Shown one piece after another: positions 4,103-25,212 of a DNA stretch of 64,000 bases (within the stretch, counting starts at the first letter, position 1; each line of letters starts with the position of its first letter). The stretch lies in contig CAVXJH010000005.1 of the NCBI GenBank assembly GCA_963762115.1, positions 43,968-107,967 of the forward strand. The letters are read 5' to 3'. Source of the stretch: Candidatus Babeliales bacterium. Its GTDB lineage: Bacteria; Babelota; Babeliae; Babelales; JANWKD01. Below the pieces are notes generated by a model. It saw only the letters and a program-made list of their open reading frames with translations. It did not search any database and was not told the DNA's origin. A program made the position numbers and the translations under genes.

Positions 4103-6547
4103 ATGAGTTACCCTTTTAAAGATGTAGAAAAAAAATGGCAGCACTATTGGGCTGATCACAAAATCGGAGAAGCAAAACCAACCGGCAATGGAAAAAAATA
4201 TTATTGCTTAGATATGTTTCCTTACCCTTCTGGATCAGGATTACATGTTGGTCATTGGCGTGGTTATGTTTTATCGGATGTATATGCACGCATTAAATCA
4301 TTACAAGGATACAACGTTTTACATCCTATGGGATGGGATGCTTTCGGCTTGCCGGCAGAAAATGACGCTATAAAAAAAGGCATTTTGCCGCAAGATAGTA
4401 CCGCAAAAAACATTGCACATTTCAAACAACAACTACAAGAAGTTGGTGCGTTATATGATTGGTCAAAAGAAGTAAATACAACTGACCCTGATTATTATAA
4501 ATGGACGCAATGGATTTTTTTACAAATGTATAAAGCTGGTTTGGCTTATCAATCTAATATGCCAATCAATTGGTGCCCCGTAGATAAAACAGGACTTGCC
4601 AATGAGGAAGTCATTGATGGTTGTTGTGAACGATGCGGCGCGCAGGTTGAACAAAAAAAAATTCCACAATGGGTATTACGTATCACCAACTACGCACAAA
4701 AGCTACTTGATGGTCTTGATACGCTTGAATGGCCAGAAAAAGTAAAATCAATGCAAAGAAATTGGATTGGCAGGAGTGAAGGGTTAATCTTTACTGCTCC
4801 GATAAAGGGTACCAATCTCACTTTGCAAACATATTCTGCTCACTTTGAAAGTTGTTATGCCGACACTTTTGTTGTTATTGCTCCTGATCACCCATTTTTA
4901 AAAACGTTACTTGAAGATGTTCCCAACAAACAAGAAATTCTTGATTATTGCCACGCTATTATAAAAAAGAGAAGTGAAGATCGTGATCTTTCAGAACCCG
5001 AAGGAATTTTCACCGGGAAATACATTATTGATCCTTTAGGCAATGGCGATCTTCCTATTTGGGTTGCAAGTTTTGCTCTGGCAGATTATGGAACGGGTAT
5101 CGTTAAATGCTCTGCACATGATGAGCGTGATTTTGCTTTTGCAAAAAAATATCACATTCCACTCAAAGCCGTTTTATTACCGGCATATGATAAAGAACTA
5201 CAAGAAAAAGTAAAAAAATTCGAACTATGTTTTCACAATGCACAAGAAGGTATCTTAACCGAACCATCACCATTTGCAGGAAAAATTGCTGCTGACGTTC
5301 GTGAACAATTGGCCGATTATTTGGTAGAAAAAAAATTCGCCGAACGAAAAATTAACTACAAACTGCGTGATTGGATCTTCTCTCGTCAACGCTATTGGGG
5401 TGAGCCAATTCCGTTAATTCATTGTGAGCAGTGCGGCATTGTGCCCGTGCCAGAAGATCAATTGCCCGTCACGTTACCAGCAGTTGAAGAATATCATCCA
5501 ACAGGAACGGGCGAATCGCCGTTAGCCGCCATCACTGATTGGGTCAATACAAAATGCCCACAATGCAACGGCCCTGCAAAACGTGAAACCAACACCATGC
5601 CTCAATGGGCTGGATCATGTTGGTATTTCTTGCGCTACCCAAATCCACAATTGCAAACAGAAGCATTCTCTCAAAAAGATATGCAGTATTGGTTGCCTGT
5701 TGATTTATATGTTGGCGGTGTTGAGCATGCTATTTTGCATTTATTATATGCACGTTTTTATGTCAAAGTGCTCCATGATCTTGGTTTTTTGAAATTTAAT
5801 GAACCATTCACGCACCTCTTCAATCAAGGCATGGTAAACAAATTTTCAGAATTATCCGGTGCTGTTGAAAAAATGTCCAAATCAAAAGGAAATGTCGTAA
5901 ATCCTGATGAAATTGTGCAACAATATGGTTCTGATGTATTACGCATGTATATATTGTTCATGGGCCCGCCTGAACTTGATTGCGTTTGGCAAGACAATGG
6001 TCTTGAAGGCATAAAAAGATTTTTGAATAAATTATGGGATTATTTGGTGCAACCAACCACCATTCTGCCTGAAGGTCAACAAGAAACAAAAGAAGTCACG
6101 CAAAGATTTCATCAATTTTTAAAAGCATGGCAAGAACGACTTGATCTTTTTAAACCAAACACCGCTTTATCTGCTGCTATGGAATGGCTTAATGATGCAA
6201 TCGCACACAATATGCAATTCAATAAAAATACGATAGAACAACTTTTAGTTGCTCTATCAACGATGGCGCCTCATTTTAGCAGTGAATTGTTAGTCATGTT
6301 GGTGAATAAAAAATTGCAAGATTGCCAATGGCAAACTTATAATGCTGCGCTTGCACAAGAAGAAATGGTTATTATTGTTGTACAAATAAATGGTAAAATG
6401 CGTGCCAATCTTACTATACGACGAGATACTGAACAAAAAATTGTTGAAGGTGAAGCTGAACAACTTGCATTCAAATGGCTTGAAGGGAAAGATATCAAAA
6501 AGATAATCTATGTTCCCAATCGTTTGGTTAATTTTGTGGTGCAATAA
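4103..6547 (+). CDS. leuS: leucine--tRNA ligase
   Basis: 814 aa. Class I signatures are present: HVGH ([16 protein letters not shown]) and KMSKS (EKMSKSKGN). The CP1/editing insertion and the Zn-type Cys pairs are typical of bacterial LeuS. Confidence 0.97.
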
Positions 6548-6584: not shown

Positions 6585-6998
6585 TTAACTAATAATACAA
6601 CGTTTTTTTTTAGATTTTTTATGCATTACCGCAATAGAAACATCTGCAATAACTTTACCACCTCGATCATAGATCTTGCCATCACGCAAATAACGAGTAG
6701 GACGACTTCTTTGCAAAAAATCATATAATTGAGTGAAATCATTTTCATAAAAACTACCATCGTCAAAATACGTTATAGCTTTATGCGTGGTGCCATCAAA
6801 TTTTCCGCGTAATTTTCCATCTTCATTAACGTAGACCGTCACTTTTCTTTGTTCGCTTGCCTTATTCATACGGTCAACACAAATAGTTTTATCAGAACGC
6901 CATTGCTTACATAATCTTTCACGCATGTCGTCCATGCCAAACATTGAACCTACACTGAAAAAAATCACTATAAAAAAGAAATTTTTATAGCTCTTCAT
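6585..6998 (-). CDS. small leader-bearing protein with polybasic + CaaX C-terminus (KKSKKKRCIIS)
   Basis: GGGAG Shine-Dalgarno before the ATG. The leader MKSYKNFFFIVIFFSVGSMFG|MDD carries the junction motif. The last 11 codons read KKSKKKR-CIIS-stop. Confidence 0.6.
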   Translation of the reverse strand: MKSYKNFFFIVIFFSVGSMFGMDDMRERLCKQWRSDKTICVDRMNKASEQRKVTVYVNEDGKLRGKFDGTTHKAITYFDDGSFYENDFTQLYDFLQRSRPTRYLRDGKIYDRGGKVIADVSIAVMHKKSKKKRCIIS

Positions 6999-7054
6999 AG
7001 CATAACTCCCAAAAAAATAATGGTTTTTATTGTTCCATTCATACTAAAAAGATT

Positions 7055-7609
7055 TCAATTCAAAATACAACAACATTTTCTTTTTCTTTTTCTCAACAAG
7101 GCCATATCTTCTGAGTCTTGCAACATCGCTGTCACACTTCCAACATTTTTGCTCAACTGCTCGTATTTTGCCAACCTCACTTCATCCGAATCGCGCTGCC
7201 CAAGTCTTTTGCCATTTTCTACAGGCATATATTTTCCTCCACACAAAGTGCCAATATTGTGTTCTTCATCTTTGCTCTCTAATCTAAGCTTAAATGCTTC
7301 ATATGCAAGCTTTAACTGTCCTTCTGGAAATTGCATTACCACTCTTTTTTTTTGTATATCAAATTTTGCTATTAATTCCCCAGCACGCTTCACCTTAATC
7401 GTACCATCGACATATTCCTGTTGTTCTAAAATCTCTAATGCCTGTTTTTCTAAACCCCGCCAATGTTCAAAAAAAAGCGCATCATCAACATCAACGTTAC
7501 TTAAAAACATTTTCTTTTTTTCTTCTTTTTCCATGCCATACAAAGAGACAAAAATAAATGCATAGAACACACCATTACCAATCACAAAATAATTTTTAAT
7601 CTTCATCAT
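7055..7609 (-). CDS. small leader-bearing protein with polybasic + Cys-cluster/CaaX C-terminus (RKRKRKCCCILN)
   Basis: AAGGAGA Shine-Dalgarno upstream. Leader ...FYAFIFVSLYG|MEKEE. The C-terminus reads RKRKRK-CC-CILN-stop. Confidence 0.6.
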   Translation of the reverse strand: MMKIKNYFVIGNGVFYAFIFVSLYGMEKEEKKKMFLSNVDVDDALFFEHWRGLEKQALEILEQQEYVDGTIKVKRAGELIAKFDIQKKRVVMQFPEGQLKLAYEAFKLRLESKDEEHNIGTLCGGKYMPVENGKRLGQRDSDEVRLAKYEQLSKNVGSVTAMLQDSEDMALLRKRKRKCCCILN

Positions 7610-9409: not shown

Positions 9410-10064
9410 ATGAAATTATTTTTAGACACGGCACATCTTGATGACATACGAGCCTGGGCATACATGATTGATGGTGTCACCACCAACCCCTCACATCTTG
9501 CAAAAGAAAATAATGATCCCAAAAAACAAGTATTAGAAATTTGTTCTGTTATGCATAACAAAGATGTCAGCGTTGAAATCACCTACACAGAACCAACGGC
9601 AGTCTATCAACAGGCACTAGCCCTTTCAAAACTTGCACCTAACATTGTTGTTAAAGTTCCTTGTCATCACGATTATTATCCGGTGATTGCACAATTAGTG
9701 CGCGATGGCGTCAAAATCAATGTCACTTTAGTGTTCACCCTTGTGCAATCACTCTTTATGTGCAAATTCAGGAGTTAGGTATATTTCTCCTTTCATTGGC
9801 AGATGGGATGATATTGATATTGATGGCACCAATCTTTTATTTGAAATTCGCAGCATGATTGATCAATATAATTATAACACACAAATTCTTGCTGCTTCAA
9901 TTCGACACATTCGTCACTTACATGAAACAATTCTTGCTGGCGCTGATGTTGCAACAATACCAGCATCAGTTCTTGAAAAATCATCCAATCATATTTTAAC
10001 AAAAGAAGGAATGGAACAATTCAACGCCGATTGGAATAAACTTGGCCATCCATCTTTCCCTTAA
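9410..10064 (+). pseudogene. tal: transaldolase / fructose-6-phosphate aldolase (short Tal/Fsa type), interrupted by a 1-nt frameshift
   Basis: MKLFLDTAHLDDIR...GVTTNPS...VVKVP...INVTLVFTLVQSL, then the frame changes to (L)CANSGVRYISPFIGRWDDI...ILAASIRH...FNADWNKL. Removing one T at CTCTTTATG (9755..9757) restores a colinear Tal. The pattern matches short bacterial transaldolases as I recall them. Confidence 0.8.
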
Positions 10065-10070
10065 ACCATT

Positions 10071-11260
10071 ATGAACAAAAAAATAGTATCAATATTATTT
10101 GTAACCAATAACTATACTCCTTATTCTGGTGGCGTTGTAAGTTCTATTTTTTTACATACAACAGCATTACGCAAACAAGGTCATACCGTCACTATTGCCA
10201 CACTCGATTTTTTAAATACGCACCACCAACAACAAGAGGAGCATGTCATACGTCTTTATTGTCCTATTCGCTGGATTATGAATACAAATCATATGGCAAT
10301 CCCGTGGCAAGCAACCAAACAACTGGAACATCTTATAGCAACATTACAACCCACCATTATTCATGTTCACCATCCATTTTTACTCGGCACTGCTGCAAGC
10401 CGTGTCGCTCGCAAAAAAGAATACCTCTTGTGTTCACCTATCACACTCTTTATGAACAATATGTACATTACATACCCTATATTCCTCACCTCATTTCCAA
10501 ACAAATGGTTACTCACCTAGTAAAAAAATTCTGTAACAACGTTGATGGTATCATCGCTCCAAGCAGCATTGTTGAAGAACAATTACAACAGTCACAGATT
10601 AAAACTAAAACAGCGCGGATACCCAGTGGCGTTGCAGAGCACTTTTTTTCTGCCATGCCGCGCTTGCCAAAACAACCATCAACAAAAATACAACTGCTCA
10701 GCGTCAGTCGATTTGCAAAAGAAAAAAATATTACTTTTTTACTCGATGTTGTTGCCGCTCTTAACCCAACACAATTCAACACAACGTTTATTGGCTACGG
10801 TCCAGAAAAAAATAATTTAGAACGGTATGCCTTTCATCACAAAAAAATTTCTCCTCAAGCAGTTCAATTTATCGAAAGACCATCAAAAGAAATACTCTTA
10901 CATGCTTATTATGCCGCCGATATTTTTATCTTTGCTTCAAAAAGTGAAACGCAAGGAATTGTTTTGGCCGAAGCTATGTCACAAGGAACACCTGTTGTTG
11001 CTGTGCATGGTCCTGGCCAACGTGATCTGATCGAACAAGGGAAAAATGGCTTTTTAGTGCACACTCAACAAGACATGCAAACGGTTCTTGAATATATACA
11101 CGCAAATCCCACGCTGCTTGCCTCATTACAGCACAATGCTTTTGCAACAGCACAGAACTTTAAACCGGAAATAGTTACGCAGAAATTAATCGACTTTTAT
11201 TATGACGTTATTAATCATTATTCTACGAGCCCAAAAAGAAATTTTGAACTTATCTATTAG
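10071..11260 (+). pseudogene. GT4-family glycosyltransferase (diacylglycerol glycosyltransferase-like), interrupted by a 1-nt frameshift
   Basis: N-terminal piece: ILFVTNNYTPYSGGV...IIHVHHPFLLGTAASRVARKK. C-terminal piece in another frame: RIPLVFTYHTLYEQYVHYIP...ASKSETQGIVLAEAMSQGTPVVA. An A7 in place of the A6 at 10413..10418 would fuse them. Confidence 0.75.
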
Positions 11261-11332: not shown

Positions 11333-11674
11333 ATGATAGTAAGTTTGAGACATAAAACATCACCAATTCTTTTTATAATGATTTTTCTTTTAACAAATAC
11401 AAACACATCATTATCACTTCATCGCAACCAATTTAAGAATCGTCGAAATTCATTAGAAATAATGCTACCCAAGATGCAACAAGAAGAATTTAATTCTCGA
11501 TTACAAGAATTTACACAACAACAAAAAAATGCCTACCAACAAACTATAGCGCCTCAACCCAAACAAAAATCTTCTATTGAAGTAACGGTGTTACAACCGC
11601 AAAAGCAATTTACTCCAGAAATACTTGCATCAATTAAAGAAGCAATCAGATTCTGCCCAACTAGAATCCGTTAA
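11333..11674 (+). CDS. small Gln-rich ORF with N-terminal hydrophobic leader; possibly the detached N-terminus of the downstream esterase
   Basis: MIVSLRHKTSPILFIMIFLLTNTNTSLS leader. The ORF overlaps the open upstream extension of the next ORF (open from 11586) in a different frame. Confidence 0.35.
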   Translation: MIVSLRHKTSPILFIMIFLLTNTNTSLSLHRNQFKNRRNSLEIMLPKMQQEEFNSRLQEFTQQQKNAYQQTIAPQPKQKSSIEVTVLQPQKQFTPEILASIKEAIRFCPTRIR

Positions 11675-13607
11675 AAAAAAATCTTATGCTGATATTCACA
11701 ATATTCAACAGGGCAAAACAACTAAAAGTATTCTCTGTAGGCCTTTTGCTGAAGATCAATCAATATATAAACGAGGCAACGTTACAACGTCTGACAACTC
11801 TCCACAAAAGAATTCTCCTGAAAAGACAGCATCTTGTCATGATACTGCGCAAGAAACTGATGAACAAGAAAATGGCAAAGAAAAAGAACAATTTCATAAT
11901 CTTCAATCTGAACCAATTGACATGACGGCTTCGATATTCATTTATCCAATAGAAGTACAAAATGAACCTATAACTGAAATTGTACGAGAATTACCTGAAA
12001 AAAAACTTACCAACGATGAAGCAATGCCTTTTTTATTAACAAACATTACAACGCCTGAAAATTCCCCATTAAATGCTTATCCTGAAAACCTAACCAGCTA
12101 TTGTGTTGCACGAGATAATGACTCACCAGAAAAAGGTAAAAGAAAACTTACTGACGATACAATAAATCATTCATCAAAGGATGGTGAAAAAGAAACAGAA
12201 GAAAAAAATAATGATAATGAAATTAAGTCATATGAAGATTTCTCTTTATGCATAGAAGATTCTTTACAGCCAGATGAACAATTAAGCGCATTATGGCCAG
12301 ATGAACAAGTAAGCGCATTAGAAAACACTAGCCCCTGTGGAATAATTGCTGCACAAGAAATTCGTAGCCGCAAAAAATTAGATGTATTAAATATGCATGA
12401 AAACCCTCAAGCATCTTATCAAAACTACTTAGCAACAATACTATTAGGTAAATCTAATACCTTTAAACTTTCAGATTTGTATGAACAAATCAGCCAAAGG
12501 GATCAAAAAGACACTTCAGATATTAATGACCATGACAAAGAAGAATGGGTTACTCTAAGCAACCTACCAAATCCTAAATTTAAAGAATATGAGTGGAAAC
12601 CAAAAATAATTAATACTGACAAGAAAGAAAATGGCATTATCATTTTTTTTCTTATTCATGGAACCTTTAATGATTCAACTGAATATTGTAAAGATAAAGA
12701 TGCAAAAATGAGCAAGGATTTAATTAATTTCAGCAGCATGCTTGCTGATACAAATGATTGCGCAGTCAAAATTATTCCTTTTCAATGGTCCGGAGAATTA
12801 AGTGTTGAAACTAGAGAAGAGGCCGCTTCAGTGCTACAACGTTATTTTCTCAGTGATGAAGACTGCATGAATGCACATAAAACAATAGCTTTTAGTCATA
12901 GCTATGGCGGTGATGTTCTTTTACAATTTGCAAACTTACTCAAACCTCATAATAAAACATTAGATTTAGCTGTTATGGCCGCAACACCATCGGGTGAAGG
13001 GACTAAGAAAGAAACAGTTAAAAAACATGCAAGAATATTAGAATATACCGACCCTGAAGAGTGCTTCAATATTAAAAACATTATTCAATGTTTTTCGCGA
13101 GGTGATGTAACGCAAGCTTTAGGATCTCGGCATATGACCGTGGGTATATTTAATCCTCTTGGGACCGCTGAAAGAAGATTGCCTTTTCGCATAAGCAAAG
13201 ACAGAAATGTCGTAAATTGCCATTTTGAGCATAATGGAGAACTTTGTTCACACGTAAGCATCAAATGGCATGCTGCTGCATCAATGCATCTTTTTCTTCC
13301 TATGCTCCAAAACCTTTATCCTCATGCGCATGATCTGAATATTTCCACCTGTGATGATAACAGGTTACACTTACCAATTATAACCCTCAGAAATAATATT
13401 TTCTCACCTGGCTGTGAAACAACAAACCGTCGTTCATTTCAAGCAAGCATCCTTGGAGAAGAAATGTTTGAAAAACTCTACGAAAGATCGATAGGAACTT
13501 ATAATACATTGACATTATTTAAATTATTTAAAGAAGGAACGGACGCAGGATATGATCCCAAAAATCAAGGCCGTGAAGACTTAGCTAAACTATTTGAAAA
13601 AAACTAA
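11625..13607 (+). CDS. alpha/beta-fold serine esterase/lipase-like protein with long acidic low-complexity N-terminal region
   Basis: The C-terminal half has an oxyanion-type FFLIHGTFNDS and a nucleophile elbow AFSHSYGGD. The track start at 11625 is a TTG, and the first in-frame ATG is about 100 codons downstream. Confidence 0.55.
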   Translation: MHQLKKQSDSAQLESVKKKSYADIHNIQQGKTTKSILCRPFAEDQSIYKRGNVTTSDNSPQKNSPEKTASCHDTAQETDEQENGKEKEQFHNLQSEPIDMTASIFIYPIEVQNEPITEIVRELPEKKLTNDEAMPFLLTNITTPENSPLNAYPENLTSYCVARDNDSPEKGKRKLTDDTINHSSKDGEKETEEKNNDNEIKSYEDFSLCIEDSLQPDEQLSALWPDEQVSALENTSPCGIIAAQEIRSRKKLDVLNMHENPQASYQNYLATILLGKSNTFKLSDLYEQISQRDQKDTSDINDHDKEEWVTLSNLPNPKFKEYEWKPKIINTDKKENGIIIFFLIHGTFNDSTEYCKDKDAKMSKDLINFSSMLADTNDCAVKIIPFQWSGELSVETREEAASVLQRYFLSDEDCMNAHKTIAFSHSYGGDVLLQFANLLKPHNKTLDLAVMAATPSGEGTKKETVKKHARILEYTDPEECFNIKNIIQCFSRGDVTQALGSRHMTVGIFNPLGTAERRLPFRISKDRNVVNCHFEHNGELCSHVSIKWHAAASMHLFLPMLQNLYPHAHDLNISTCDDNRLHLPIITLRNNIFSPGCETTNRRSFQASILGEEMFEKLYERSIGTYNTLTLFKLFKEGTDAGYDPKNQGREDLAKLFEKN

Positions 13608-13610
13608 AGA

Positions 13611-13640
13611 GTTGGGCCGTAGAATATTCTACGGCCCAAC
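13611..13640. terminator. perfect 30-nt palindrome, bidirectional terminator candidate
   Basis: GTTGGGCCGTAGAAT|ATTCTACGGCCCAAC sits between the convergent stops at 13607 (+) and 13661 (-). It is flanked by A/T runs. Confidence 0.7.
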
Positions 13641-13660: not shown

Positions 13661-14422
13661 TTACTCTTGTGGAATACCATCCAAGTGGATTTGTATTTTT
13701 TGAATCTGATTTTCTAAATCTTGAATTTGATCAGCGCTAGCAGTGCCACTCGCTTCTAAATCTGCTAATTGCGCACTTAAATCATCTAATCGTGTCGTTA
13801 ACATGTCATAAATTTCATCCCAATTTCCATCTTGTTGCAACACAACTAATGAATCATCAAATCCTAAACCATAACCATAGTAAGGATAATAACCACCCCA
13901 ATATTGATTAATAGCAAGGGCTGATAATATTCCTAAGCCAAGCCACAAGCCACCAAAGCCCCAGCCCCAGCCGCCTCCCCAGCCACCGCCACGGAATGCA
14001 CCATGACGACCTGCAATACCACGACCGCCATGACGTCCACGACCTGCACCGCCACGTCCACGACCTGCATGTCTACCAGCACCGCCACGCCCACGAGCTC
14101 CAGCCCTAGTTCCTGCTCTACCTCTAGCGCCTGTTCTTGTACCCGCTCTTCGAGTTCCTGTCGCTCTTGTTCCCGCTCTTCGAGTTCCTGCTGCTCTAGT
14201 TCCAGCTCTTCGGGTTCCTGCGGCTCTTGTACCTGCACGGCGAGTTCCTGCTGCTCTAGTTCCACCAGCGCGACGGGCACCACCAGCTCTCATGCCACCG
14301 CCACGCATGCCACCACCACGCATGCCACCTCCGCGTCCGCCGCCGCCGCCACCACCACCTCTTCCATCAAGCTGTGGAATCACCAACAGCACCATAAGAA
14401 TCGATAAAACTATTTTTTTCAT
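13661..14422 (-). CDS. secreted Gly/Arg-repeat (RGG/GAR-like) protein with Gly-aromatic segment and acidic coiled-coil tail
   Basis: Signal-like MKKIVLSILMVLLVIPQLDG. This is followed by RGGGGGGGGRGGGMRGGGMRGGGM, then 5 x RRAGTRAAGT-type units, then GWGGGWGWGFGG, YYPYYGYGLGF and an acidic helical end. Confidence 0.7.
   Translation of the reverse strand: MKKIVLSILMVLLVIPQLDGRGGGGGGGGRGGGMRGGGMRGGGMRAGGARRAGGTRAAGTRRAGTRAAGTRRAGTRAAGTRRAGTRATGTRRAGTRTGARGRAGTRAGARGRGGAGRHAGRGRGGAGRGRHGGRGIAGRHGAFRGGGWGGGWGWGFGGLWLGLGILSALAINQYWGGYYPYYGYGLGFDDSLVVLQQDGNWDEIYDMLTTRLDDLSAQLADLEASGTASADQIQDLENQIQKIQIHLDGIPQE
14123..14275 (-). repeat. about five tandem 30-nt coding repeats (RRAGTRAAGT units) in a GC-rich island
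   Basis: The + strand shows the unit CGAGTTCCTG(Y)(Y)GCTCT(W)GT(W)CC(C/A)GCTCTT repeated. It lies inside CDS 13661..14422. Confidence 0.75.
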
Positions 14423-14585
14423 ACTATTCCCCTTTATCGTTAAAAAATAACAACACTTATATTTTAATTTTTTTATAGTATAAAAATCAACAATTCATTT
14501 CAAGATGTAATTAAATCGCCACACTTTGCCTCGTATAATACTAGAAATTTCAAAGAAGTATTTATTATTATGAAATAAAAAAAGG

Positions 14586-14977: not shown

Positions 14978-16963
14978 ATGAAAAAAAAGTGTTATAATAA
15001 CAGTATGAAAAAACTTTTTAAACTACATTCACCCTTCATTCCCGCAGGAAGTCAACCTGAAGCTATCAAAAAATTAACAGAAGGAAGACCTGGCATATCA
15101 ACCCTCCTTGGGGTGACTGGCTCTGGAAAAACGTTCACCATGGCAAATATAATTGCCAATCAGAATAAACCGGTGCTTATTTTGTCGCCCAACAAGACAT
15201 TGGCTGCACAGTTATATGAAGAATTCTCCCTATTTTTCCCTGAAAATAAGGTTTGTTATTTTGTCAGCTATTATGATTATTATCAACCTGAATCATATAT
15301 GCCTGCTCAAGATATTTATATTCCAAAAGAAACCAAGGTAAATAGTGAAATTGAGCGGTTGCGTGTCGAATCGACAGCATCCCTTATTAATAGAAAAGAT
15401 ACCATTGTAATCGCCTCTGTTTCGTGCATTTATTCCCTGGGTAATCCTGATGATTACCGCAATTTAGCATTTGCTCTTACGGTAGGCCAAACAATTAAAC
15501 GGGTCGATTTAATTAACCAACTTATTTTTATACAATACAGAAGAAATGATGTTCAAAGAGACTCGGGGACCTTTGCAGTGATTGGCAACACCATTGAAAT
15601 CAATTTACCCTATCAAAAAGAAAAATTAAGAATTGAACTCTTTGGCGACACTATTGAAAACCTTCAATGGATTGATAAACAAAATAATAATGTGGTCATG
15701 AATCTTGATAATACACTGATTTTCCCTGCCAAACATTTTGTAACAACACAAGAAAAAAAAGATGCTGCCGTAGAAAGTATCACCAATGAAGTTGAAGCAT
15801 GGGCACCACAATTACCAAATCCGTTATATCAAGAACGTATAAAACAGCGCGTTGCACATGATCTTGAAATGCTTCAAGAGGTTGGCTATTGTTCAGGCAT
15901 TGAAAACTATTCACGTCATTTTGATGGTAGACTTCCTGGCACAAAACCAGCAAGTTTATTCGATTTTTTTGATAATGACTTCTTACTTTTTATCGATGAA
16001 TCACATATAGCAATTCCCCAATTAAAAGGAATGTATGCTGGCGATAGAGCACGCAAAAAAGCATTAATCGAATTTGGATTCAGATTACCTTCAGCCTATG
16101 ATAATCGCCCCCTACAATTTCATGAAATCGAAAGCTATTTTAAGGATACCATTTTTGTTTCGGCAACGCCGTCTGAATATGAACTTGAAAAATCAGATCT
16201 TATTGTTGAACAAATTATTCGCCCAACAGGGTTATTAGATCCGATCTTGGAAACTCATCCGCGCACCAATCAAATGAACCATCTCATTGAACAAATTACC
16301 GCAACAACAAAACAAGGTTACCGTTCATTAGTTATGGTGCTCACCAAAAAATTAGCAGAAGAATTAGCGCTCTACCTTGAAGAAAAGAAAATTAAAGTTT
16401 GTTATTTGCACAGCGAAATTAAAACACCACAACGCAGTGAACTCCTACACAAATTACGTGCTGGCGTTTTTGATTGCTTAGTTGGTGTTAACTTACTGCG
16501 CGAGGGAATTGATCTTCCAGAGGTTGCCCTTGTTGCGATTATGGATGCAGATATTGAAAGTTTTTTACGCGATAAACGTTCGTTAATCCAGATTATTGGA
16601 CGAGCAGCGCGTAATGCTGAATCTCGTGTGTTGTTATATGGTGATAAAATGACAAAATCATTAAAAGATGCCATGAATGAAACGCAACGCAGACGCACCA
16701 TGCAAGAAGCATATAATACCGAACATGGCATTAGTCCCATAAGTGTGAAACGAGAAGTTACCAAAACAATCTCAAACTTCCAAGCGGCTATTGCCTTGGC
16801 AGCCAAAAAACGTTCTCCTAAAAAAGAGACGACAGAAAAAATATCAATTAATGATCGTATTCAAGAACTTGAAGAAGCAATGGTTAAAGCAGCTGAAGGA
16901 TTCGATTTTGAAACAGCAATTGCTTTACGAGAAGAATGGTTTGCCTTAAAAAAAGACAAATAA
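14978..16963 (+). CDS. uvrB: excinuclease ABC subunit B
   Basis: FKLHSPFIPAGSQPEAIKKL, Walker A GVTGSGKTFT, YFVSYYDYYQPE, DESH and a C-terminal UVR motif. The true start is probably the ATG at 15005 (MKKLFKL...). Confidence 0.97.
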   Translation: MKKKCYNNSMKKLFKLHSPFIPAGSQPEAIKKLTEGRPGISTLLGVTGSGKTFTMANIIANQNKPVLILSPNKTLAAQLYEEFSLFFPENKVCYFVSYYDYYQPESYMPAQDIYIPKETKVNSEIERLRVESTASLINRKDTIVIASVSCIYSLGNPDDYRNLAFALTVGQTIKRVDLINQLIFIQYRRNDVQRDSGTFAVIGNTIEINLPYQKEKLRIELFGDTIENLQWIDKQNNNVVMNLDNTLIFPAKHFVTTQEKKDAAVESITNEVEAWAPQLPNPLYQERIKQRVAHDLEMLQEVGYCSGIENYSRHFDGRLPGTKPASLFDFFDNDFLLFIDESHIAIPQLKGMYAGDRARKKALIEFGFRLPSAYDNRPLQFHEIESYFKDTIFVSATPSEYELEKSDLIVEQIIRPTGLLDPILETHPRTNQMNHLIEQITATTKQGYRSLVMVLTKKLAEELALYLEEKKIKVCYLHSEIKTPQRSELLHKLRAGVFDCLVGVNLLREGIDLPEVALVAIMDADIESFLRDKRSLIQIIGRAARNAESRVLLYGDKMTKSLKDAMNETQRRRTMQEAYNTEHGISPISVKREVTKTISNFQAAIALAAKKRSPKKETTEKISINDRIQELEEAMVKAAEGFDFETAIALREEWFALKKDK

Positions 16964-18508: not shown

Positions 18509-20575
18509 ATGAAAAAGAAATTAATAGTACTCATAGGTTTTATGAGTATATTTTCAGGATGTTTAGAACAACAAAAAACAAAACATCCAAATTCTATTGA
18601 ATCAATAAACGATATAATCAATTATTTTCCAACAACAAGCGATGAAATTAAACAAATTGCAGCTGATGCACAAACAAAAACACAAAATTTAATTTCAACC
18701 CTACTTACTACACCTCCAGGACAAGAATCATTCGAAACAATTTTTGGTGTTTTTGATAAAGCCATTGCCGCCATGACACGGGCAATTAGTCTCTTTGAAG
18801 TTATTTCCCTGACTAATCCTCATGAATCTTTACGTACTGCAGCGCAAGAAGAAAGTGTGCGATTACAGGGAATTTTTATTGATTTAATAAGTCAAAATAA
18901 AAATCTTTATAACAAATTATCATCATATGCAGATACCAGTGCAAACCATGAAACATTAAGTGATGCTCAAAAATATTTTATTAAAGAAACACTTGAGTCA
19001 TATCAACGAGATGGTATAAATTTACCCGAGGAAAAAAGAGATCAAGTGGCAAAAGTTAAAAAAGAACTTGCCGATCTTACCACCCTTTTTGATAAAAACG
19101 TCAATGATGATGCAAGCACAATTGAAGTTCCCCTTGAAGGATTAAAAGGGCTTAGTGAAGAATTTATAACAAATCTCAAAAAAAACTCTGAAGGATTATA
19201 TATTCTGGGTGTTGACTATCCCACCTATCAACAAGTAATAAAACAAGCTGAAGATCAGCAAACACGAAAAAAAATTCTTGAAGCATTTAATAATCGTGCA
19301 TACCCGGCCAATATAAAAGTATTAGATGCAATTATTGTTAAAAGAAATGAGCTTGCTCAACTTTTAAACTTCCCAAGCTTCTCTCATCTCAATATGGCAA
19401 GCGAGATGGCAAAAACACCTGAAAAAGTTGAATCATTTCTAGAAGAATTATTAGAAAAATCACTCAAGAAAACATCAAAAGAATTTGCTGAATTAACAAA
19501 AGAGTTACCACCTTCTGTAAACTTGAACCCTGATGGCACCATGAATGCATGGGATATTCAATTTGTTGCTACGTGGTATACCAAAAAGAATTATGACCTA
19601 GATCCTTATAAAGTTGCTGAATATTTTCCTATGGAAAAAACCATTGAAGGTCTTTTCAATATTTACCAACAATTTTTTGGTCTTCGCTTTCAAGAACTGC
19701 CCTTAACAGGCCTTTGGGATAAAGAATTAAAACTCCTTGCAGTTTATAAAAACGAAACCTTGCTTGGTTATCTTATTCTTGATTTATACCCTCGTGATAA
19801 CAAACGCGCAGGTGCTTTTAACGCTACTATTATCCCAACGTTACGCACCAAAGATGGCAACATTACCCCTGCACTCAGTCTTGTTGTAGCAAATTTACCA
19901 AAATCAACGGCAACTAAACCATCACTCCTTTTGCGCAGCGATGTAAGCACTTTTTTCCATGAATTTGGGCATGCTCTTCATGCATTACTTGGCGCAACTG
20001 AATTAGAATCACAATCAGGCACCAATGTTAAAACAGATTTTGTTGAGCTACCATCTCAAATGCTCGAAGAATGGTTATTTGATAAAGATATTCTTTCTAA
20101 TCTGAGTAGTCATTATGTAACGGGAGAAAAATTATCACCCGATACTCTTGATAAAATTCTTATTTTAAAAAATCTTTCCAATGGAAAATGGATAACCACA
20201 CAAATACTCTATTCTTTTTTTGCCCTCAAATTATTTGGTCCTGGCACAGAAAAAGATTCACAAAAAATACTGCAAGAATTACAACAAAAACTTGATAAAC
20301 ATATCTTCAGCGGACCCAATGATCATATGCAAGCTGCATTTCACCATTTAACAGGTTATGGAGCACGATATTATAGTTATGTATGGTCAAAAGTATTTGC
20401 GCTTGATATTTTTAATGAAATAAAAAAAGCTGGATTACTTAATCCTGAAATTGGTAAAAAATATAGTGATACTATTTTGAGTAAAGGAGGCAGCAAAGAT
20501 CCTGAACTTTTATTAATTGACTTCTTAGGACGAAAACCAAATTCAGAAGCTTTTTTTAAAGATCTTGGCTTATAA
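18509..20575 (+). CDS. M3-family zinc oligopeptidase (thimet/oligopeptidase A-like), probable lipoprotein, copy 1
   Basis: FFHEFGHALH (HExxH) plus downstream FVELPSQMLEEW. N-terminal MKKKLIVLIGFMSIFSGC is lipobox-like. GAGGAG Shine-Dalgarno upstream. Confidence 0.9.
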   Translation: MKKKLIVLIGFMSIFSGCLEQQKTKHPNSIESINDIINYFPTTSDEIKQIAADAQTKTQNLISTLLTTPPGQESFETIFGVFDKAIAAMTRAISLFEVISLTNPHESLRTAAQEESVRLQGIFIDLISQNKNLYNKLSSYADTSANHETLSDAQKYFIKETLESYQRDGINLPEEKRDQVAKVKKELADLTTLFDKNVNDDASTIEVPLEGLKGLSEEFITNLKKNSEGLYILGVDYPTYQQVIKQAEDQQTRKKILEAFNNRAYPANIKVLDAIIVKRNELAQLLNFPSFSHLNMASEMAKTPEKVESFLEELLEKSLKKTSKEFAELTKELPPSVNLNPDGTMNAWDIQFVATWYTKKNYDLDPYKVAEYFPMEKTIEGLFNIYQQFFGLRFQELPLTGLWDKELKLLAVYKNETLLGYLILDLYPRDNKRAGAFNATIIPTLRTKDGNITPALSLVVANLPKSTATKPSLLLRSDVSTFFHEFGHALHALLGATELESQSGTNVKTDFVELPSQMLEEWLFDKDILSNLSSHYVTGEKLSPDTLDKILILKNLSNGKWITTQILYSFFALKLFGPGTEKDSQKILQELQQKLDKHIFSGPNDHMQAAFHHLTGYGARYYSYVWSKVFALDIFNEIKKAGLLNPEIGKKYSDTILSKGGSKDPELLLIDFLGRKPNSEAFFKDLGL

Positions 20576-20592
20576 TTAATGAAAGAAAAATC

Positions 20593-22662
20593 ATGAAAAA
20601 AAGGCTCATAGTAATAGTATCTTTAATTATCATTTTTCCCTGTTGTTTAGAAATAGAATCTTCTAAAGCATTACCTGATGTGGTTAAATCGGTTCATGAT
20701 GTTGTTGCCTATTTTCCAACAACGAGTCAAGAAATAAGAAACATATCAAATACCACCCAAAAAGAAGTTGAAGAATTAATTTCCACTATAATCAACACTA
20801 CCCCAAAAGAATATTCATTTAAAACAACTTTTGGTGTTTTAGATAAAGCTTTCGCTCTTATGTCGCGCACAATCAGTCTTTTTGAAATTATTTTTAAACT
20901 TAATCCTGATGAAGTTTTACGCAAAATTGCCGAAGATGAAGCCGTGCGATTACAACAACTATTTGTTGATTTAATAGGCCAAAATAAAAATCTTTATAAC
21001 ACCTTATCGGCATATGCAAATACAACATCAAAAAATGAAGATCTAACTGATTCACAAAAATATTTCATCAAAGAAACCCTTGAAGCATATAGACGTGAGG
21101 GATTAGATTTACCTGACGAAAAGCAGGATTTAGTTAAAAAAATAAAAAAGGAACTTGCAGATCTCTCGTCACTTTTTGATAAAAATATTAATGATGACAT
21201 AAGAACAATTAAAGTTTCTCGCGAAGCACTCAAAGGCATTGATGAAGATTTTATTAACGAACTAAAAAAAACGTCTGAAGGTCTCTATATATTAAATATT
21301 GATGAGCCGACTTATTATATCATAATGAAACAAGGTGAAGATGCTCAAACTCGAAAGAAGCTCTTTGAAGCAGTTTTAAGTCTTGCATTTCCTGCAAATA
21401 TGCACGTTTTAGAAGAGATTATTGCCAAGAGAAATGAACTTGCTCAACTCTTGCATTTTCCAAGCTTTGCTCATTTAGATATCGCGGGCCAAATGGCAAA
21501 AACACCAGAAACCGTTGAAGCATTTTTAAAAGGATTGTTAGAAAAATCAGCAAAAAAAGCTTCTTTAGAATTTGCTGATTTAACAAAGGAATTACCACCC
21601 TCAGTAGTGTTAACCCCTGAAGGCAAATTACAACCGTGGGATCGCCAATTTCTAGATAATTGGTATATCAAAAAGCATTATGATATTGATCCCTTTAAAA
21701 TTGCTGAATATTTTCCCATGGAAAAAACTATTGAAGGGCTTTTTGATATCTACCAACAATTTTTTGATCTTCATTTTGAACAAGTTCCACTCACAGGCTT
21801 ATGGGATAAAGAATTGAAACTTCTTGAAGTATATAAAGATACTCTATTCTTAGGTTATATTATTCTGGATTTACATCCTCGCGATAATAAACGAAAAAAT
21901 GCTTTTAATACAACATTAATTCCAGCATTGCGAACGCATGATCGGAAGATCAATCCTGCACTTACTCTCGTTAATGCAAATTTTCCTAAAGCTACTGCTA
22001 CAAAACCTTCATTGTTATTACGAATAGATGTAAGTACCTTTTTTCATGAGTTTGGTCATGCTTTGCACGCCTTACTTGGTGCAACAGAATTAGAATCGCA
22101 ATCAGGCACCAATGTTAAAACAGATTTTGTTGAGTTACCCTCGCAAATGCTAGAAGAATGGTTGTTTGATAAAGATATTCTACATAATTTAAGTAGTCAT
22201 TATAAAACGGACGAAAAATTATCGACTGATGTCATTAATACAATAATTTCTTTAAAAAAACTTAATTCTGGCAAATCAACCATTGATCAACTCATTTATT
22301 CATATCTTGCTCTCCGTTATTTTGGTTCTGAAAAACAAAAAGACACGCAAGACATTCTCAAAAATTTACAAGAAACAATTGATGTTCACACACAATATGA
22401 TCCCAATGATCATTTCCAAACTTCGTTCAATCACTTAACCGGCTATGGTGCAAAATATTACAGTTATTTATGGTCACAAGTATTTGCGCTTGATCTCTTT
22501 AATGAAATTAAAAAACAGGGCTTACTCAACCCTATCATTGGCAAAAAATATAGTGATACTATTTTGAGTAAAGGAGGCAGCAAAGATCCTGAACTGCTCT
22601 TAATTGACTTCTTGGGAAGAAAACCAAACTCTGATGCATTCTTTAAAGATCTTGGCTTATAG
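20593..22662 (+). CDS. M3-family zinc oligopeptidase, copy 2
   Basis: Colinear paralog of copy 1 with an identical active-site block. N-terminal MKKRLIVIVSLIIIFPCC. Confidence 0.9.
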   Translation: MKKRLIVIVSLIIIFPCCLEIESSKALPDVVKSVHDVVAYFPTTSQEIRNISNTTQKEVEELISTIINTTPKEYSFKTTFGVLDKAFALMSRTISLFEIIFKLNPDEVLRKIAEDEAVRLQQLFVDLIGQNKNLYNTLSAYANTTSKNEDLTDSQKYFIKETLEAYRREGLDLPDEKQDLVKKIKKELADLSSLFDKNINDDIRTIKVSREALKGIDEDFINELKKTSEGLYILNIDEPTYYIIMKQGEDAQTRKKLFEAVLSLAFPANMHVLEEIIAKRNELAQLLHFPSFAHLDIAGQMAKTPETVEAFLKGLLEKSAKKASLEFADLTKELPPSVVLTPEGKLQPWDRQFLDNWYIKKHYDIDPFKIAEYFPMEKTIEGLFDIYQQFFDLHFEQVPLTGLWDKELKLLEVYKDTLFLGYIILDLHPRDNKRKNAFNTTLIPALRTHDRKINPALTLVNANFPKATATKPSLLLRIDVSTFFHEFGHALHALLGATELESQSGTNVKTDFVELPSQMLEEWLFDKDILHNLSSHYKTDEKLSTDVINTIISLKKLNSGKSTIDQLIYSYLALRYFGSEKQKDTQDILKNLQETIDVHTQYDPNDHFQTSFNHLTGYGAKYYSYLWSQVFALDLFNEIKKQGLLNPIIGKKYSDTILSKGGSKDPELLLIDFLGRKPNSDAFFKDLGL

Positions 22663-22684
22663 TAGATGAAAACGTAGACTAATA

Positions 22685-24846: not shown

Positions 24847-25212
24847 CTACCATTGTTCTTCTTGAATAACATCATACAATTCTGGATCTTCATCTTCATT
24901 GTAATAGTAGCCACCATCATACAATTCATCAGCCGCAAGACCCAAACCTAAACCAAGGCCTAATCCAGCACCATAACCATAACCATAGCCACGGCCGCCT
25001 CTTCTTCCATAGTAATTTCGATTACCAAAGTTTCGACCACCACCGCGATTCATACCGCCACTACGCATGCCACCACCACGCATACCGCCACCTCGGCTCA
25101 TACCACCACCACGCATACCGCCTCCGCCGCCACCACGACTTTCAAGCGAAGAAACAACACCCACCATCATTATTAAAAACACAAAAATCGCCTTCAAATA
25201 CCTATTATTCAT
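24847..25212 (-). CDS. secreted Gly/Arg-repeat (RGG-like) protein, short paralog-like form
   Basis: Signal-like MNNRYLKAIFVFLIMMVGVVSSLES, then RGGGGGGMRGGGMSRGGGMRGGGMRSGGMNRGGG, then GYGYGYGAGLGLGLGLGL and an acidic Tyr-rich tail. Confidence 0.65.
   Translation of the reverse strand: MNNRYLKAIFVFLIMMVGVVSSLESRGGGGGGMRGGGMSRGGGMRGGGMRSGGMNRGGGRNFGNRNYYGRRGGRGYGYGYGAGLGLGLGLGLAADELYDGGYYYNEDEDPELYDVIQEEQW

Follow-up and report, generated by a model that had tools for sequence, protein, structure and literature searches.

A putatively exported glycine/arginine-rich protein of Candidatus Dependentiae with a variable polycationic tail and a conserved C-terminal domain

The Gly/Arg-rich protein encoded in the window (the whole 64-kb stretch of DNA that was analysed) is the product of a real gene, and it belongs to a small, undescribed family that is defined by a C-terminal domain of ~90 residues with a YPYWGYGLG signature. 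The reading that we favour, with a probability of roughly 40%, is that the protein is exported and acts as a self-associating polycation on polyanionic surfaces, at the envelope of the parasite or at its interface with the host. Sec export of the pre-protein, with cleavage after residue 20, would yield a mature protein of three blocks, namely a polycation of ~125 residues, a sticky Gly/Trp/Phe/Leu patch, and an acidic helical domain of ~90 residues. Outside the cytoplasm, the aromatic patch and the helical domain would promote self-association by Arg-aromatic and block-charge attraction, and the polycationic tail would bind polyanionic surfaces, which may belong to the parasite itself (its envelope) or to the host (membranes and glycans). 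Parasite and host would then meet at an adhesive or cohesive coat or matrix, with slippage in short DNA repeats changing tail length and with function set by bulk charge and composition and not by a specific RGG-box recognition code. At present, the protein counts as an uncharacterised, presumably secreted protein of low complexity rather than as a proven new mechanism.

The gene and its compositional setting

The gene is an intact open reading frame of 253 codons and a stop, with an ATG start (Table 1). The earlier note had called it free of a Shine-Dalgarno sequence, a claim contradicted by the AAGGGG hexamer just upstream of the start codon. Two overlapping sigma-70-like promoter candidates, which come from a consensus scan (9/12 matches) that does not in itself prove function, lie within an intergenic region of 22% GC shared with a divergent small ORF and uvrB. 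Beyond the stop codon, a terminator-like hairpin separates the gene from a convergent gene of 660 aa. With these signals the gene would form a self-contained transcription unit in the genome of a member of Candidatus Dependentiae (TM6). The assignment to this group, and with it the earlier suggestion of an intracellular bacterium, is supported by UvrB, for which every named match (72-75% identity) is from Dependentiae or Babeliales. The window has a GC content of 35%, and a weak NTP/NDP-exchange-transporter-like gene (76.9 bits vs a cutoff of 387) is in keeping with an intracellular energy parasite.

Table 1. Coordinates of the features of the Gly/Arg gene and of its short relative within the window
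Feature	Position	Strand	Basis
Whole coding sequence	13661..14422	-	Read from sequence; homologues; dN/dS below 1
Shine-Dalgarno-like AAGGGG, 6 nt before ATG	14429..14434	-	Direct reading, minus strand 5'-TAAAGGGGAATAGTATG-3'
Two overlapping sigma-70-like promoter candidates, TTGAAA-17-TACTAT and TTGATT-18-TAAAAT	14461..14503	-	Consensus scan
Predicted signal peptide, residues 1-20, MKK / IVLSILMVLLVI / PQLDG	14363..14422	-	Rule-based reading
Disordered polycationic tail, residues 21-144	13991..14362	-	Composition; AlphaFold pLDDT
15-nt unit x 3.3 encoding RGGGM x 3	14280..14329	-	Tandem-repeat analysis
Tandem array encoding RRAGTRAAGT units	14131..14264	-	TRF 30-nt unit x 4.2, 81% match, or 60-nt x 2.2
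Uncharged Gly/Trp/Phe/Leu patch, residues 145-164, GGGWGGGWGWGFGGLWLGLG	13931..13990	-	Composition
Conserved C-terminal domain, residues 165-253	13664..13930	-	AlphaFold; profile search; alignment
13-bp GC-rich terminator-like hairpin, 20 nt past stop codon	13611..13640	.	
Short relative, 121 aa	24847..25212	-	On second GC-rich stretch

The GC content in 200-nt windows is 0.60-0.64 over about 13900-14400, with a maximum of 0.69 (150-nt) in the gene, against a mean of 0.351 for the whole stretch. GC rises above 0.52 in no more than four stretches of the 64 kb, the top two being the Gly/Arg gene and its short relative (24932-25205). The earlier description of a GC-rich island is thus correct as to richness and fails as to a compositional island, because GC3 in the tail (GC1/GC2/GC3 = 0.75/0.94/0.24) is close to the 0.25 found in ten reference genes. 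The richness therefore stems from Gly, Arg and Ala codons and not from foreign DNA. This normal GC3, together with a choice of synonymous Gly, Ala and Arg codons similar to that of the reference genes, rules out a horizontally acquired GC-rich island.

The same codon-position pattern and synonymous codon usage fix the coding frame, and the three-base periodicity of the tail, the conserved homologues and dN/dS values of 0.2-0.5 (vs three orthologues, with dS near saturation) bear out the earlier view that the gene is genuinely coding. A chance open frame over low-complexity GC-rich DNA could be argued from the opposite strand, which is also open (e.g. 14003..14407 (+)), and from the absence of the exact protein from the public collection. 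That reading is effectively refuted already, by the strong periodicity in the called frame, by the presence of a signal peptide, a Shine-Dalgarno sequence and a terminator, by a confidently folding domain common to 23 homologues, by syntenic orthologues, and by a dN/dS below 1.

Organisation of the predicted protein

Rules applied to the n-, h- and c-regions identify the first 20 residues as a probable Sec signal peptide of the SPase I type, with a positive n-region, an h-region of 12 residues (mean Kyte-Doolittle 3.5) that lies within the expected range of 7-15 hydrophobic residues, and a polar c-region. Cleavage is predicted before R21, so that the mature protein would start with RGGGG. The -3/-1 junction at this point, (L/V/C/T)-x-(A/S/G) followed by RGGG(G), is conserved in about 15 homologues, which makes a convincing Sec signal peptide of what the earlier note had called signal-like. 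The leader has no lipobox (L-[AS]-[GA]-C) and no Cys at all, and a lipoprotein or Gly-zipper (Rick_17kDa_Anti) reading was rejected on the lack of Cys and of any Pfam match even at E <= 1. A Sec leader had also been considered unusual in this setting, which does not hold for Dependentiae. The genome descriptions report type II secretion as the only system detected in Babela massiliensis, with signal peptides on most of its ankyrin effectors (PMC4378268), and signal peptides on 44% of CDS in Chromulinavorax (PMC6561590). Since no system other than type II secretion has been reported, Sec leaders are normal for presumed Dependentiae effectors.

The tail of 124 residues consists of 39% G, 27% R, 19% A and 10% T, with no D, E or K and a net charge of +33, and AlphaFold pLDDT values below 50 for residues 19-163 indicate disorder. 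All of the elements listed previously are present in the translation, with G8, 3 x RGGGM, 10-residue repeats (about five RRAGTRAAGT units) and an RG/GR zone in the tail, followed by GWGGGWGWGFGG, YYPYYGYGLGF and an acidic C-terminal tail (net charge -11 over residues 196-253). The RRAGTRAAGT array is limited to the protein of the window, as the orthologues carry different arrays. A collagen-like protein of the Lcl, Scl or BclA type was considered and rejected, since the repeats are of 5 and 10 residues and Gly does not occupy every third position.

The likeness of the tail to eukaryotic RGG boxes is one of composition only. Formally, the tail of the window protein shows the Tri-RGG pattern (RGG-X0-4-RGG-X0-4-RGG), as do those of three out of four relatives, and the Tri-RG pattern has 1-4 matches in each of these five proteins. 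When each tail was shuffled 2000 times, however, the counts of RGG, RG and GR were about those expected from composition in four of the five proteins (z from -1.2 to +1.3), the exception being RGG in the orthologue L008 (z = 2.3), and enrichment of RG/RGG as a motif was rejected because, this case apart, shuffled tails give equal counts. Pfam, NCBIfam, PDB sequence and fold searches found no RNA-binding or other known binding domain and no enzyme, and no homology was found to fibrillarin, nucleolin, FUS or other eukaryotic GAR proteins. Some family members carry His in place of Arg (up to 33% His, with a net charge of 0), a swap that argues against a specific RGG-box function. A DEAD-box helicase in the same window (42478-44238) has a Gly/Arg/Ser-rich basic tail of its own (QRGGSRFGGRGGSRSRSSS); RGG-like tails are therefore not exclusive to eukaryotes. 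Of the earlier note's overall interpretation, the coding gene, the intracellular bacterium, the Sec leader and the length variability stand, and the RGG-specific reading is weakened.

Among 19 family members, the tails contain 22-56% Gly (30-56% in 17 members), 4-27% Arg and 0-33% His. Lys is absent from 15 of the 19 (3-8% in the other four), and acidic residues are likewise absent from 15, with one to four in each of the remainder. The genome as a whole encodes 7.5% Lys and 3.9% Arg, and Arg-rich, Lys-poor tails in such a Lys-rich genome indicate that selection maintains Arg in the face of mutational and compositional bias. What is conserved in the tail is its composition, and not its sequence or its length.

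The tail is followed by the uncharged patch. In the clade of the window protein, its best 19-residue hydropathy is 1.55, slightly short of the value usually required of a transmembrane segment, and many homologues have values of only -0.2 to 1.0. The C-terminal domain is predicted by AlphaFold (as a monomer; pLDDT 87.9, pTM 0.78) to comprise a short helix, the aromatic loop YYPYYGYGLGF (13859-13891), and helices at residues 191-197, 201-225 and 230-249, ending with HLDG (13676-13687). What had been described as a coiled-coil tail is modelled as helical but compact, with an antiparallel hairpin, and not as a long coiled coil. Residues Y179, P180, Y181, G187, W201 and L208 are near-invariant, and the family profile reads Y-P-Y-W/Y-G-Y-G-L-G, then L-x-x-L-A-Q-x3-W, two heptad helices, and H-L-D-G near the end. 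The protein itself had no match in Pfam, NCBIfam, PDB or fold databases. Foldseek against PDB and viral models returned only generic helical hairpins (all E > 0.5), a PDB profile search only generic or designed coiled coils (E >= 0.002), and a family-level Pfam search scattered single coiled-coil matches with no common family. As for retention at the cell surface, no lipobox, beta-barrel or peptidoglycan-binding domain was found in the protein.

The family and its possible functions

A profile search with the C-terminal domain among 1.84 billion representatives retrieved 23 proteins at E <= 1e-3, 11 of them at E <= 1e-10; one of the 23, P0019 with 2761 aa, matches only through a generic coiled coil. 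With the C-terminal 94 residues as sole query, a word-index search had no hits, and a scan of species-representative genomes with narrow peptide patterns, which is weak evidence of absence, gave no more than a spurious match to the coiled coil of an M23 peptidase from a MAG of Actinomycetota. Among the matches listed, a metagenome scan recovered only the already known contig L006. No description of such a family was found in the literature, and the passages on glycine in PMC6561590, PMC4776705 and PMC4378268 describe no Gly/Arg-rich protein family. By its distribution, the family appears to be specific to the phylum Dependentiae; its more distant members are L001, L002, L004, L010, L011 and L012. 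Positional orthologues beside uvrB have lengths of 180, 180, 232, 239, 253 and 322 aa, each with its own unrelated repeats, so that the locus is indeed length-variable, as had been proposed, in comparisons between species. Identity in the C-terminal domain is down to 70% where that of UvrB is still 97%. Neighbouring genes include M3 peptidases, and in L014 also an ankyrin-repeat protein.

The short relative of 121 aa shares a signal peptide, RGGGGGG, RGGGM repeats, GYGYGY/GLGLGL and an acidic tail ending in W, and has syntenic counterparts in L005, L008 and L014. Its status as a paralog, as claimed in the earlier note, is plausible from the common architecture and composition, its position, and tandem adjacency in L014. 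Sequence similarity does not add to this, since the uncorrected tblastn match between the long form and the relative (E = 2e-15) has no counterpart in composition-corrected BLASTP, which gave no alignment; paralogy at the sequence level is thus not demonstrable after composition correction.

The earlier note had left the choice between an effector that mimics RGG proteins and an extracellular Gly-rich structural or matrix protein, of which the latter is at least as likely. Against a coat, it can be said that attachment to a surface with no retention device would be purely electrostatic or hydrophobic, and that the mature protein carries a net charge of +3 over its first 18 residues, which in E. 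coli would slow export by Sec. Delivery to the host is possible, if somewhat doubtful: the protein would pass through Sec and then be released by type II secretion into the host vacuole or cytoplasm, where the tail would act like eukaryotic RGG/GAR or toxic poly-GR sequences and may bind host RNA, ribosomes, nucleoli or other condensates, with methylation by PRMTs of the host as a further possibility. The formal Tri-RGG and Tri-RG patterns, the fast evolution of the C-terminal domain relative to UvrB, and the restriction of the family to one lineage are in keeping with this, as are the neighbouring M3 peptidases, for which as a class secretion is predicted in Chromulinavorax, and the ankyrin-repeat neighbour in L014, a class regarded as Dependentiae effectors. 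A protein that evolves fast and is confined to one lineage could equally well be a host-targeted effector or a coat. Type II substrates are usually folded proteins, however, and RG/RGG frequencies no higher than composition gives, the use of His for Arg in some members, and the lack of GAR homology and of an RNA-binding or other eukaryote-like domain all speak against an effector, which would moreover leave the conserved Gly/Trp patch and the acidic domain unexplained. In favour of an effector, Sec signal peptides are the usual mark of presumed host-directed effectors in Dependentiae, in which type II secretion alone is found (PMC4378268; also PMC4776705, PMC6561590). It is unlikely that the family represents a whole class of Sec/type II effectors that brings eukaryote-like Gly/Arg disorder into protist hosts, with the YPYWGYG domain serving to oligomerise or to target; such proteins would enter or disrupt condensates, nucleoli or ribosomes, or would be drawn electrophoretically into mitochondria.

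It is rather improbable that the protein is a polycation that acts on membranes and is neutralised by an acidic domain of its own, by analogy with prepro-antimicrobial peptides. In this proposal, the Arg/His/Trp part would attack or remodel a membrane, for example that of the acidified food vacuole, and the acidic C-terminal domain would keep the polycation inert until release or a change in pH. The cationic, Arg- and Trp-rich and Gly-rich composition followed by an anionic block is consistent with such an activity, and variants rich in His would become more positive at the pH of the vacuole. The charges of tail and C-terminal domain are also inversely correlated in 19 members (r = -0.64), but significance is lost when close relatives are dropped (r = -0.38, p = 0.16), and charge compensation between the two blocks is suggestive and not robust. 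Moreover, AlphaFold predicts no amphipathic helix in the tail, there is no evident site at which the blocks could be separated by processing, and conservation is highest in the C-terminal domain, which would be odd for a mere pro-piece. An inner-membrane anchor is very improbable; here the N-terminal segment, the internal patch, or both would span the membrane, and a cytoplasmic polycation would organise the nucleoid or ribosomes. The hydropathy of the patch in the clade of the window protein approaches what is needed, and its positive N side and negative C side would fit the positive-inside rule, but the N-terminal h-region is short and is followed by Pro and by a conserved peptidase-type junction. 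A transmembrane anchor, single-pass or hairpin, was rejected because the hydropathy of the patch is not conserved and residues 166-175 form part of the soluble helical domain in the AlphaFold model. The exported, self-associating polycation accordingly remains our preferred, if tentative, reading.

Significance and comparison with known systems

Dependentiae are widespread and almost uncultured intracellular parasites of protists, and their secretome consists mostly of orphan proteins. What is new here is a small family of three-block design, encoded at a conserved position beside uvrB, in which a cleavable leader is followed by a hypervariable polycation of Arg and Gly and by a new helical domain that is conserved. 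The family would be a clean natural case of selection on composition, and not on sequence, in an extracytoplasmic disordered region, where Arg is retained and Lys avoided even though the genome as a whole prefers Lys. Should host condensates or membranes be the target of the tail, RGG/poly-GR biology would reach into bacterial virulence, and a Sec/type II RGG-like effector would be without precedent among secreted bacterial proteins as a mimic of RGG low-complexity domains. If the protein is a coat or adhesive, it would offer insight into how these parasites stick and survive between hosts. In either case, it is a tractable candidate for recombinant biophysics.

The RGG regions of fibrillarin, nucleolin and FUS resemble the tail in their Gly/Arg disorder, in Tri-RGG/Tri-RG spacing, and in a combination of Arg and aromatic residues of the phase-separating kind. 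GAR proteins are cytoplasmic or nuclear and usually carry an RNA-binding or RNA-processing domain, whereas the Gly/Arg protein has a signal peptide, and so would be extracytoplasmic, and has neither homology to them nor an RRM, KH, methyltransferase or helicase partner domain. Its spacers are Ala, Thr and Met where eukaryotic RGG regions have Phe, Tyr and Ser, its RG adjacency is at the level given by composition, and some members of its family are His-rich instead. Secreted adhesins with variable repeats in intracellular bacteria, such as the collagen-like protein Lcl of Legionella, likewise combine a signal peptide, variable Gly-rich tandem repeats and a conserved C-terminal domain with export via Sec/type II and presumed polyanion binding. 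The repeat of the Gly/Arg protein, in contrast, has 10 residues and no Gly-X-Y, so that no collagen triple helix is expected, its C-terminal domain is unrelated, and its tail is far more cationic.

Secreted Gly-rich structural proteins include plant cell-wall GRPs and the sulfur-globule envelope proteins of purple sulfur bacteria, and coacervating proteins rich in His, Gly and aromatic residues occur in squid beak and in marine adhesives. In these structural proteins, too, a signal peptide precedes Gly-rich low-complexity sequence with Tyr, Trp or His, composition is conserved over sequence, and self-assembly into a material is presumed; homology is lacking, and the Arg-rich block and the acidic helical domain are found only in the Gly/Arg protein. 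The tails of bacterial DEAD-box helicases offer a native example of Gly/Arg/Ser-rich basic disorder, but they are cytoplasmic, have a length of only about 30 residues and extend from an RNA helicase core, whereas the Gly/Arg protein is predicted to be exported and has no enzymatic core. The secretome of Dependentiae is described (PMC6561590, PMC4378268) as large, Sec-dependent and rich in orphans, with an emphasis on ankyrin, WD40, F-box and peptidase effectors from which the Gly/Arg family differs. With the orphan secreted proteins of Babela massiliensis and Chromulinavorax destructans in these accounts, the family shares a Sec leader, the absence of known domains and a lineage-specific distribution, and its gene likewise lies among other genes for secreted proteins.

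The gene and its base composition

The window gene is an unbroken reading frame and, as the earlier note described, it is GC-rich: GC is 0.60-0.64 when taken over 200 nt and peaks at 0.69 over 150 nt, while the whole window has 0.351. Across the 64 kb, no more than four stretches exceed 0.52, and the top two coincide with this gene and with a second small Gly/Arg-rich gene, the short relative. The high GC content is an effect of protein composition. GC1/GC2/GC3 are 0.75/0.94/0.24 in the Gly/Arg region, GC3 is 0.25 in ten reference genes of the same window, and synonymous codon choice for Gly, Ala and Arg in the tail, the low-complexity region after the signal peptide, resembles that of the reference genes. 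The matching GC3 and the similar synonymous choice rule out foreign DNA as the source of the 'island'. The reading frame is fixed by the strong three-base periodicity of the Gly/Arg region, and the long opposite-strand frames are by-products of low-complexity DNA. The gene had been called Shine-Dalgarno-free, which is wrong, as a candidate ribosome-binding sequence precedes its start codon (Table).

Every listed peptide feature was found in the protein: G8 with three RGGGM (in TRF, a 15-nt unit x 3.3), about five RRAGTRAAGT units (a 30-nt unit x 4.2, 81% match), an RG/GR zone, GWGGGWGWGFGG, YYPYYGYGLGF and an acidic C-terminus.

Table. Features of the window and of two related contigs
Feature	Position	Strand	Details
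Transaldolase-like gene	9410-10061		frameshift-split; intact in L006, 217 aa
GT4 glycosyltransferase gene, adjoining	10071-11260		frameshift-split; intact in L006, 392 aa
Convergent neighbour gene	11625-13607	+	660 aa; kept in L006 (671 aa) and L008 (647 aa)
GC-rich 13-bp hairpin	13611-13640		20 nt past window-gene stop codon
Window gene	13661-14422	-	ATG start, 253 codons
Shine-Dalgarno-like AAGGGG			6 nt ahead of window-gene ATG; read from sequence
Two overlapping sigma-70-like promoter candidates	14461-14503		intergenic region, 22% GC
UvrB gene	14978-16963		adjoins window gene
Three tandem M3 oligopeptidase genes	18509-24772	+	688/689/695 aa
Short relative	24847-25212	-	121 aa
rve-type integrase (IS element transposase)	41252-42247	-	within reduced genome
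DEAD-box RNA helicase (CshA/DbpA-like)	42478-44238	-	
Small ORF	47505-47768	+	87 aa; on third small GC-rich stretch, 47554-47734
Adjacent pair, first gene	48804-50243	-	478 aa
Adjacent pair, second gene	50422-51858	-	479 aa
L013, gene at short-relative position	6843-7148	-	101 aa
L014, long member beside uvrB	4628-5170		180 aa
L014, short Gly/Arg/His-rich signal-peptide protein	5342-5725		127 aa

A lineage-specific protein family

No identical protein is present in the public collection, and a search with the whole protein returned two homologues, of 40% and 32% identity. An exhaustive profile search with the C-terminal ~95 residues against 1.84 billion representatives matched 23 proteins at E <= 1e-3 and 11 at E <= 1e-10. 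One of the 23, the 2761-aa P0019, matched as a generic coiled coil and was left out of alignments. Pfam and NCBIfam gave no match for the window protein or 24 family members, and a PDB profile search returned generic coiled coils only. These proteins form a real, undescribed and uncharacterised family, specific to Dependentiae, of putatively secreted low-complexity proteins whose small helical domain is novel; the distribution is lineage-specific.

Members share a signal peptide ending in the junction (L/V/C)-x-(A/S/G)↓R-G-G-G-G, a tail, an uncharged Gly/Trp/aromatic patch of 13-64 residues, and a folded acidic domain in which an amphipathic helix is followed by Y-P-Y-W-G-Y-G-L-G, L-x-x-L-A-Q-x3-W and two heptad helices ending I-Q-x-H-L-D-G. 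The tail is a disordered polycation that is conserved in composition and not in sequence or length. Among 19 members it contains 22-56% Gly (30-56% in 17), 4-27% Arg and 0-33% His; 15 members have no Lys and four have 3-8%, 15 have no acidic residues and four have 1-4 of them, and net charge ranges from 0 to +44, being +5 to +44 in all except the His-rich P0007.

Orthologues occupy the same place, divergent from uvrB, in contigs L005 (232 aa), L006 (322 aa) and L008 (239 aa). The L014 gene is also divergent and directly beside uvrB (UvrB 78% identical to the window's), and the L013 gene (180 aa; UvrB 76% identical) lies on the uvrB strand, ~1.4 kb upstream with two genes between. The 30/60-nt array of the window gene is absent from all orthologues, which carry their own arrays of 12-36 nt, different in each; the predicted length variability is borne out between species (180-322 aa). 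Between the window and L005, UvrB is 97%, the signal peptide 90% and the C-terminal domain only 70% identical. This disparity and a domain dN/dS of 0.23-0.53 (dS about 0.8-1.25) indicate purifying selection, yet much faster evolution than in housekeeping genes.

The short relative has a signal peptide ending LES, RGGGGGG, RGGGM repeats, GYGYGY/GLGLGL and an acidic tail, and counterparts in L005 and L008 lie at the same position, after the M3 peptidases. Its description as a paralog holds in that a second gene of like architecture exists; common origin, plausible from architecture and position, is unproven, as uncorrected tblastn against the long form gave E = 2e-15 and composition-corrected BLASTP no alignment. 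The tandem of long and short forms in L014, a more distant Dependentiae contig in which the short form is directly downstream from the long one, suggests that they arose through tandem duplication; an ankyrin-repeat gene is nearby. In L013 the position of the short relative, following the M3 peptidase, encodes a protein with signal peptide, coiled coil and acidic tail and no Gly/Arg region; small secreted proteins that change rapidly seem to occupy this position.

Genomic neighbourhood

The closest relatives of the window UvrB are 97, 92 and 88% identical, and all named matches, at 72-75% identity, are Candidatus Dependentiae or Babeliales. The intracellular lifestyle had been assumed correctly, this being the TM6/Dependentiae lineage of protist parasites. 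The window also encodes a channel of the MscS type, as well as several small proteins with signal peptides. Its three M3 genes, compared with two in L005 and one each in L008 and L013, indicate recent tandem expansion; M3 peptidases are among the secreted proteases described for Chromulinavorax (PMC6561590).

The 660-aa convergent neighbour has no Pfam or PDB match and may, from its GxSxG-like motif SHSYGG, be an orphan serine hydrolase. The split transaldolase-like and GT4 genes are either two neighbouring pseudogenes or assembly indel errors. In the 87-aa ORF the signal peptide (MMKKSLLSLTVLSALLLVASVDA) precedes a basic low-complexity region that is rich in Cys, Pro, Thr and Ala and contains two 'KSRC...TPAPKPVPPQ' repeats; the product is predicted to be another small secreted low-complexity protein. 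The first gene of the adjacent pair matches an NTP/NDP exchange transporter weakly (76.9 bits, cutoff 387) and the second has no model match; both may be divergent nucleotide transporters, as is typical of energy parasites. No tRNA genes (ARAGORN) or Rfam families at the gathering threshold were found in the 64 kb.

Probable export, possible function and the RGG/GAR resemblance

A Sec leader, which had been thought unusual, is no surprise here. [quoted passage not shown] The leader is therefore compatible with an envelope or a host-directed protein alike. Its hydrophobic core of 12 residues, the Pro that follows and the conserved peptidase-type junction indicate that this is a signal peptide that is cleaved and does not serve as an anchor; the window protein has no lipobox. 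The earlier view of a secreted protein is supported to this extent, and the protein is probably fully exported and soluble.

We favor, at a probability of about 0.4, a mature protein that would self-associate and bind polyanionic surfaces. Self-association would proceed via Arg-aromatic contacts, block-charge attraction and the helical domain; the surfaces could be those of the parasite envelope or the host, on which the protein would form a coat, adhesive or matrix, and repeat slippage could tune tail length. It is improbable that the protein is anchored in the membrane with its tail in the cytoplasm: within the window clade, hydropathy over 19 residues of the internal Gly/Trp/Leu patch gets as high as 1.55, but many members have values of only -0.2 to 1.0, and AlphaFold places residues 166-175 within the soluble domain, making a conserved anchor unlikely. 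Slightly less improbable is a membrane-active polycation restrained by its own acidic domain; tail and C-terminal charge correlate across 19 members (r = -0.64), but less so once close relatives are removed (r = -0.38, p = 0.16). That the ORF is not a gene can practically be dismissed, as periodicity and its own expression signals uphold the coding call.

A host-delivered effector, RGG or poly-GR-like, is a possible though less likely candidate than the self-associating surface protein. The eukaryotic RGG/GAR likeness stands in that the protein formally contains Tri-RGG and Tri-RG patterns. It fails in that RGG, RG and GR counts equal shuffled-sequence expectation (|z| mostly < 1.3) and that Pfam, NCBIfam and PDB profile searches found no RNA-binding domain or homology to GAR proteins; His replaces Arg in some members. 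The mimicry amounts to a likeness in composition alone, and bulk composition is the conserved property of the tail. Arg at 27% and Lys at 0%, compared with 3.9% and 7.5% in a genome sample, indicate selection for the guanidinium group itself (cation-pi contacts, phosphate/sulfate binding) rather than an RGG code. The DEAD-box helicase of this same genome has an RGG-like basic C-terminal tail, QRGGSRFGGRGGSRSRSSS, a native, cytoplasmic Gly/Arg tail showing that RGG-like tails are native to bacteria.
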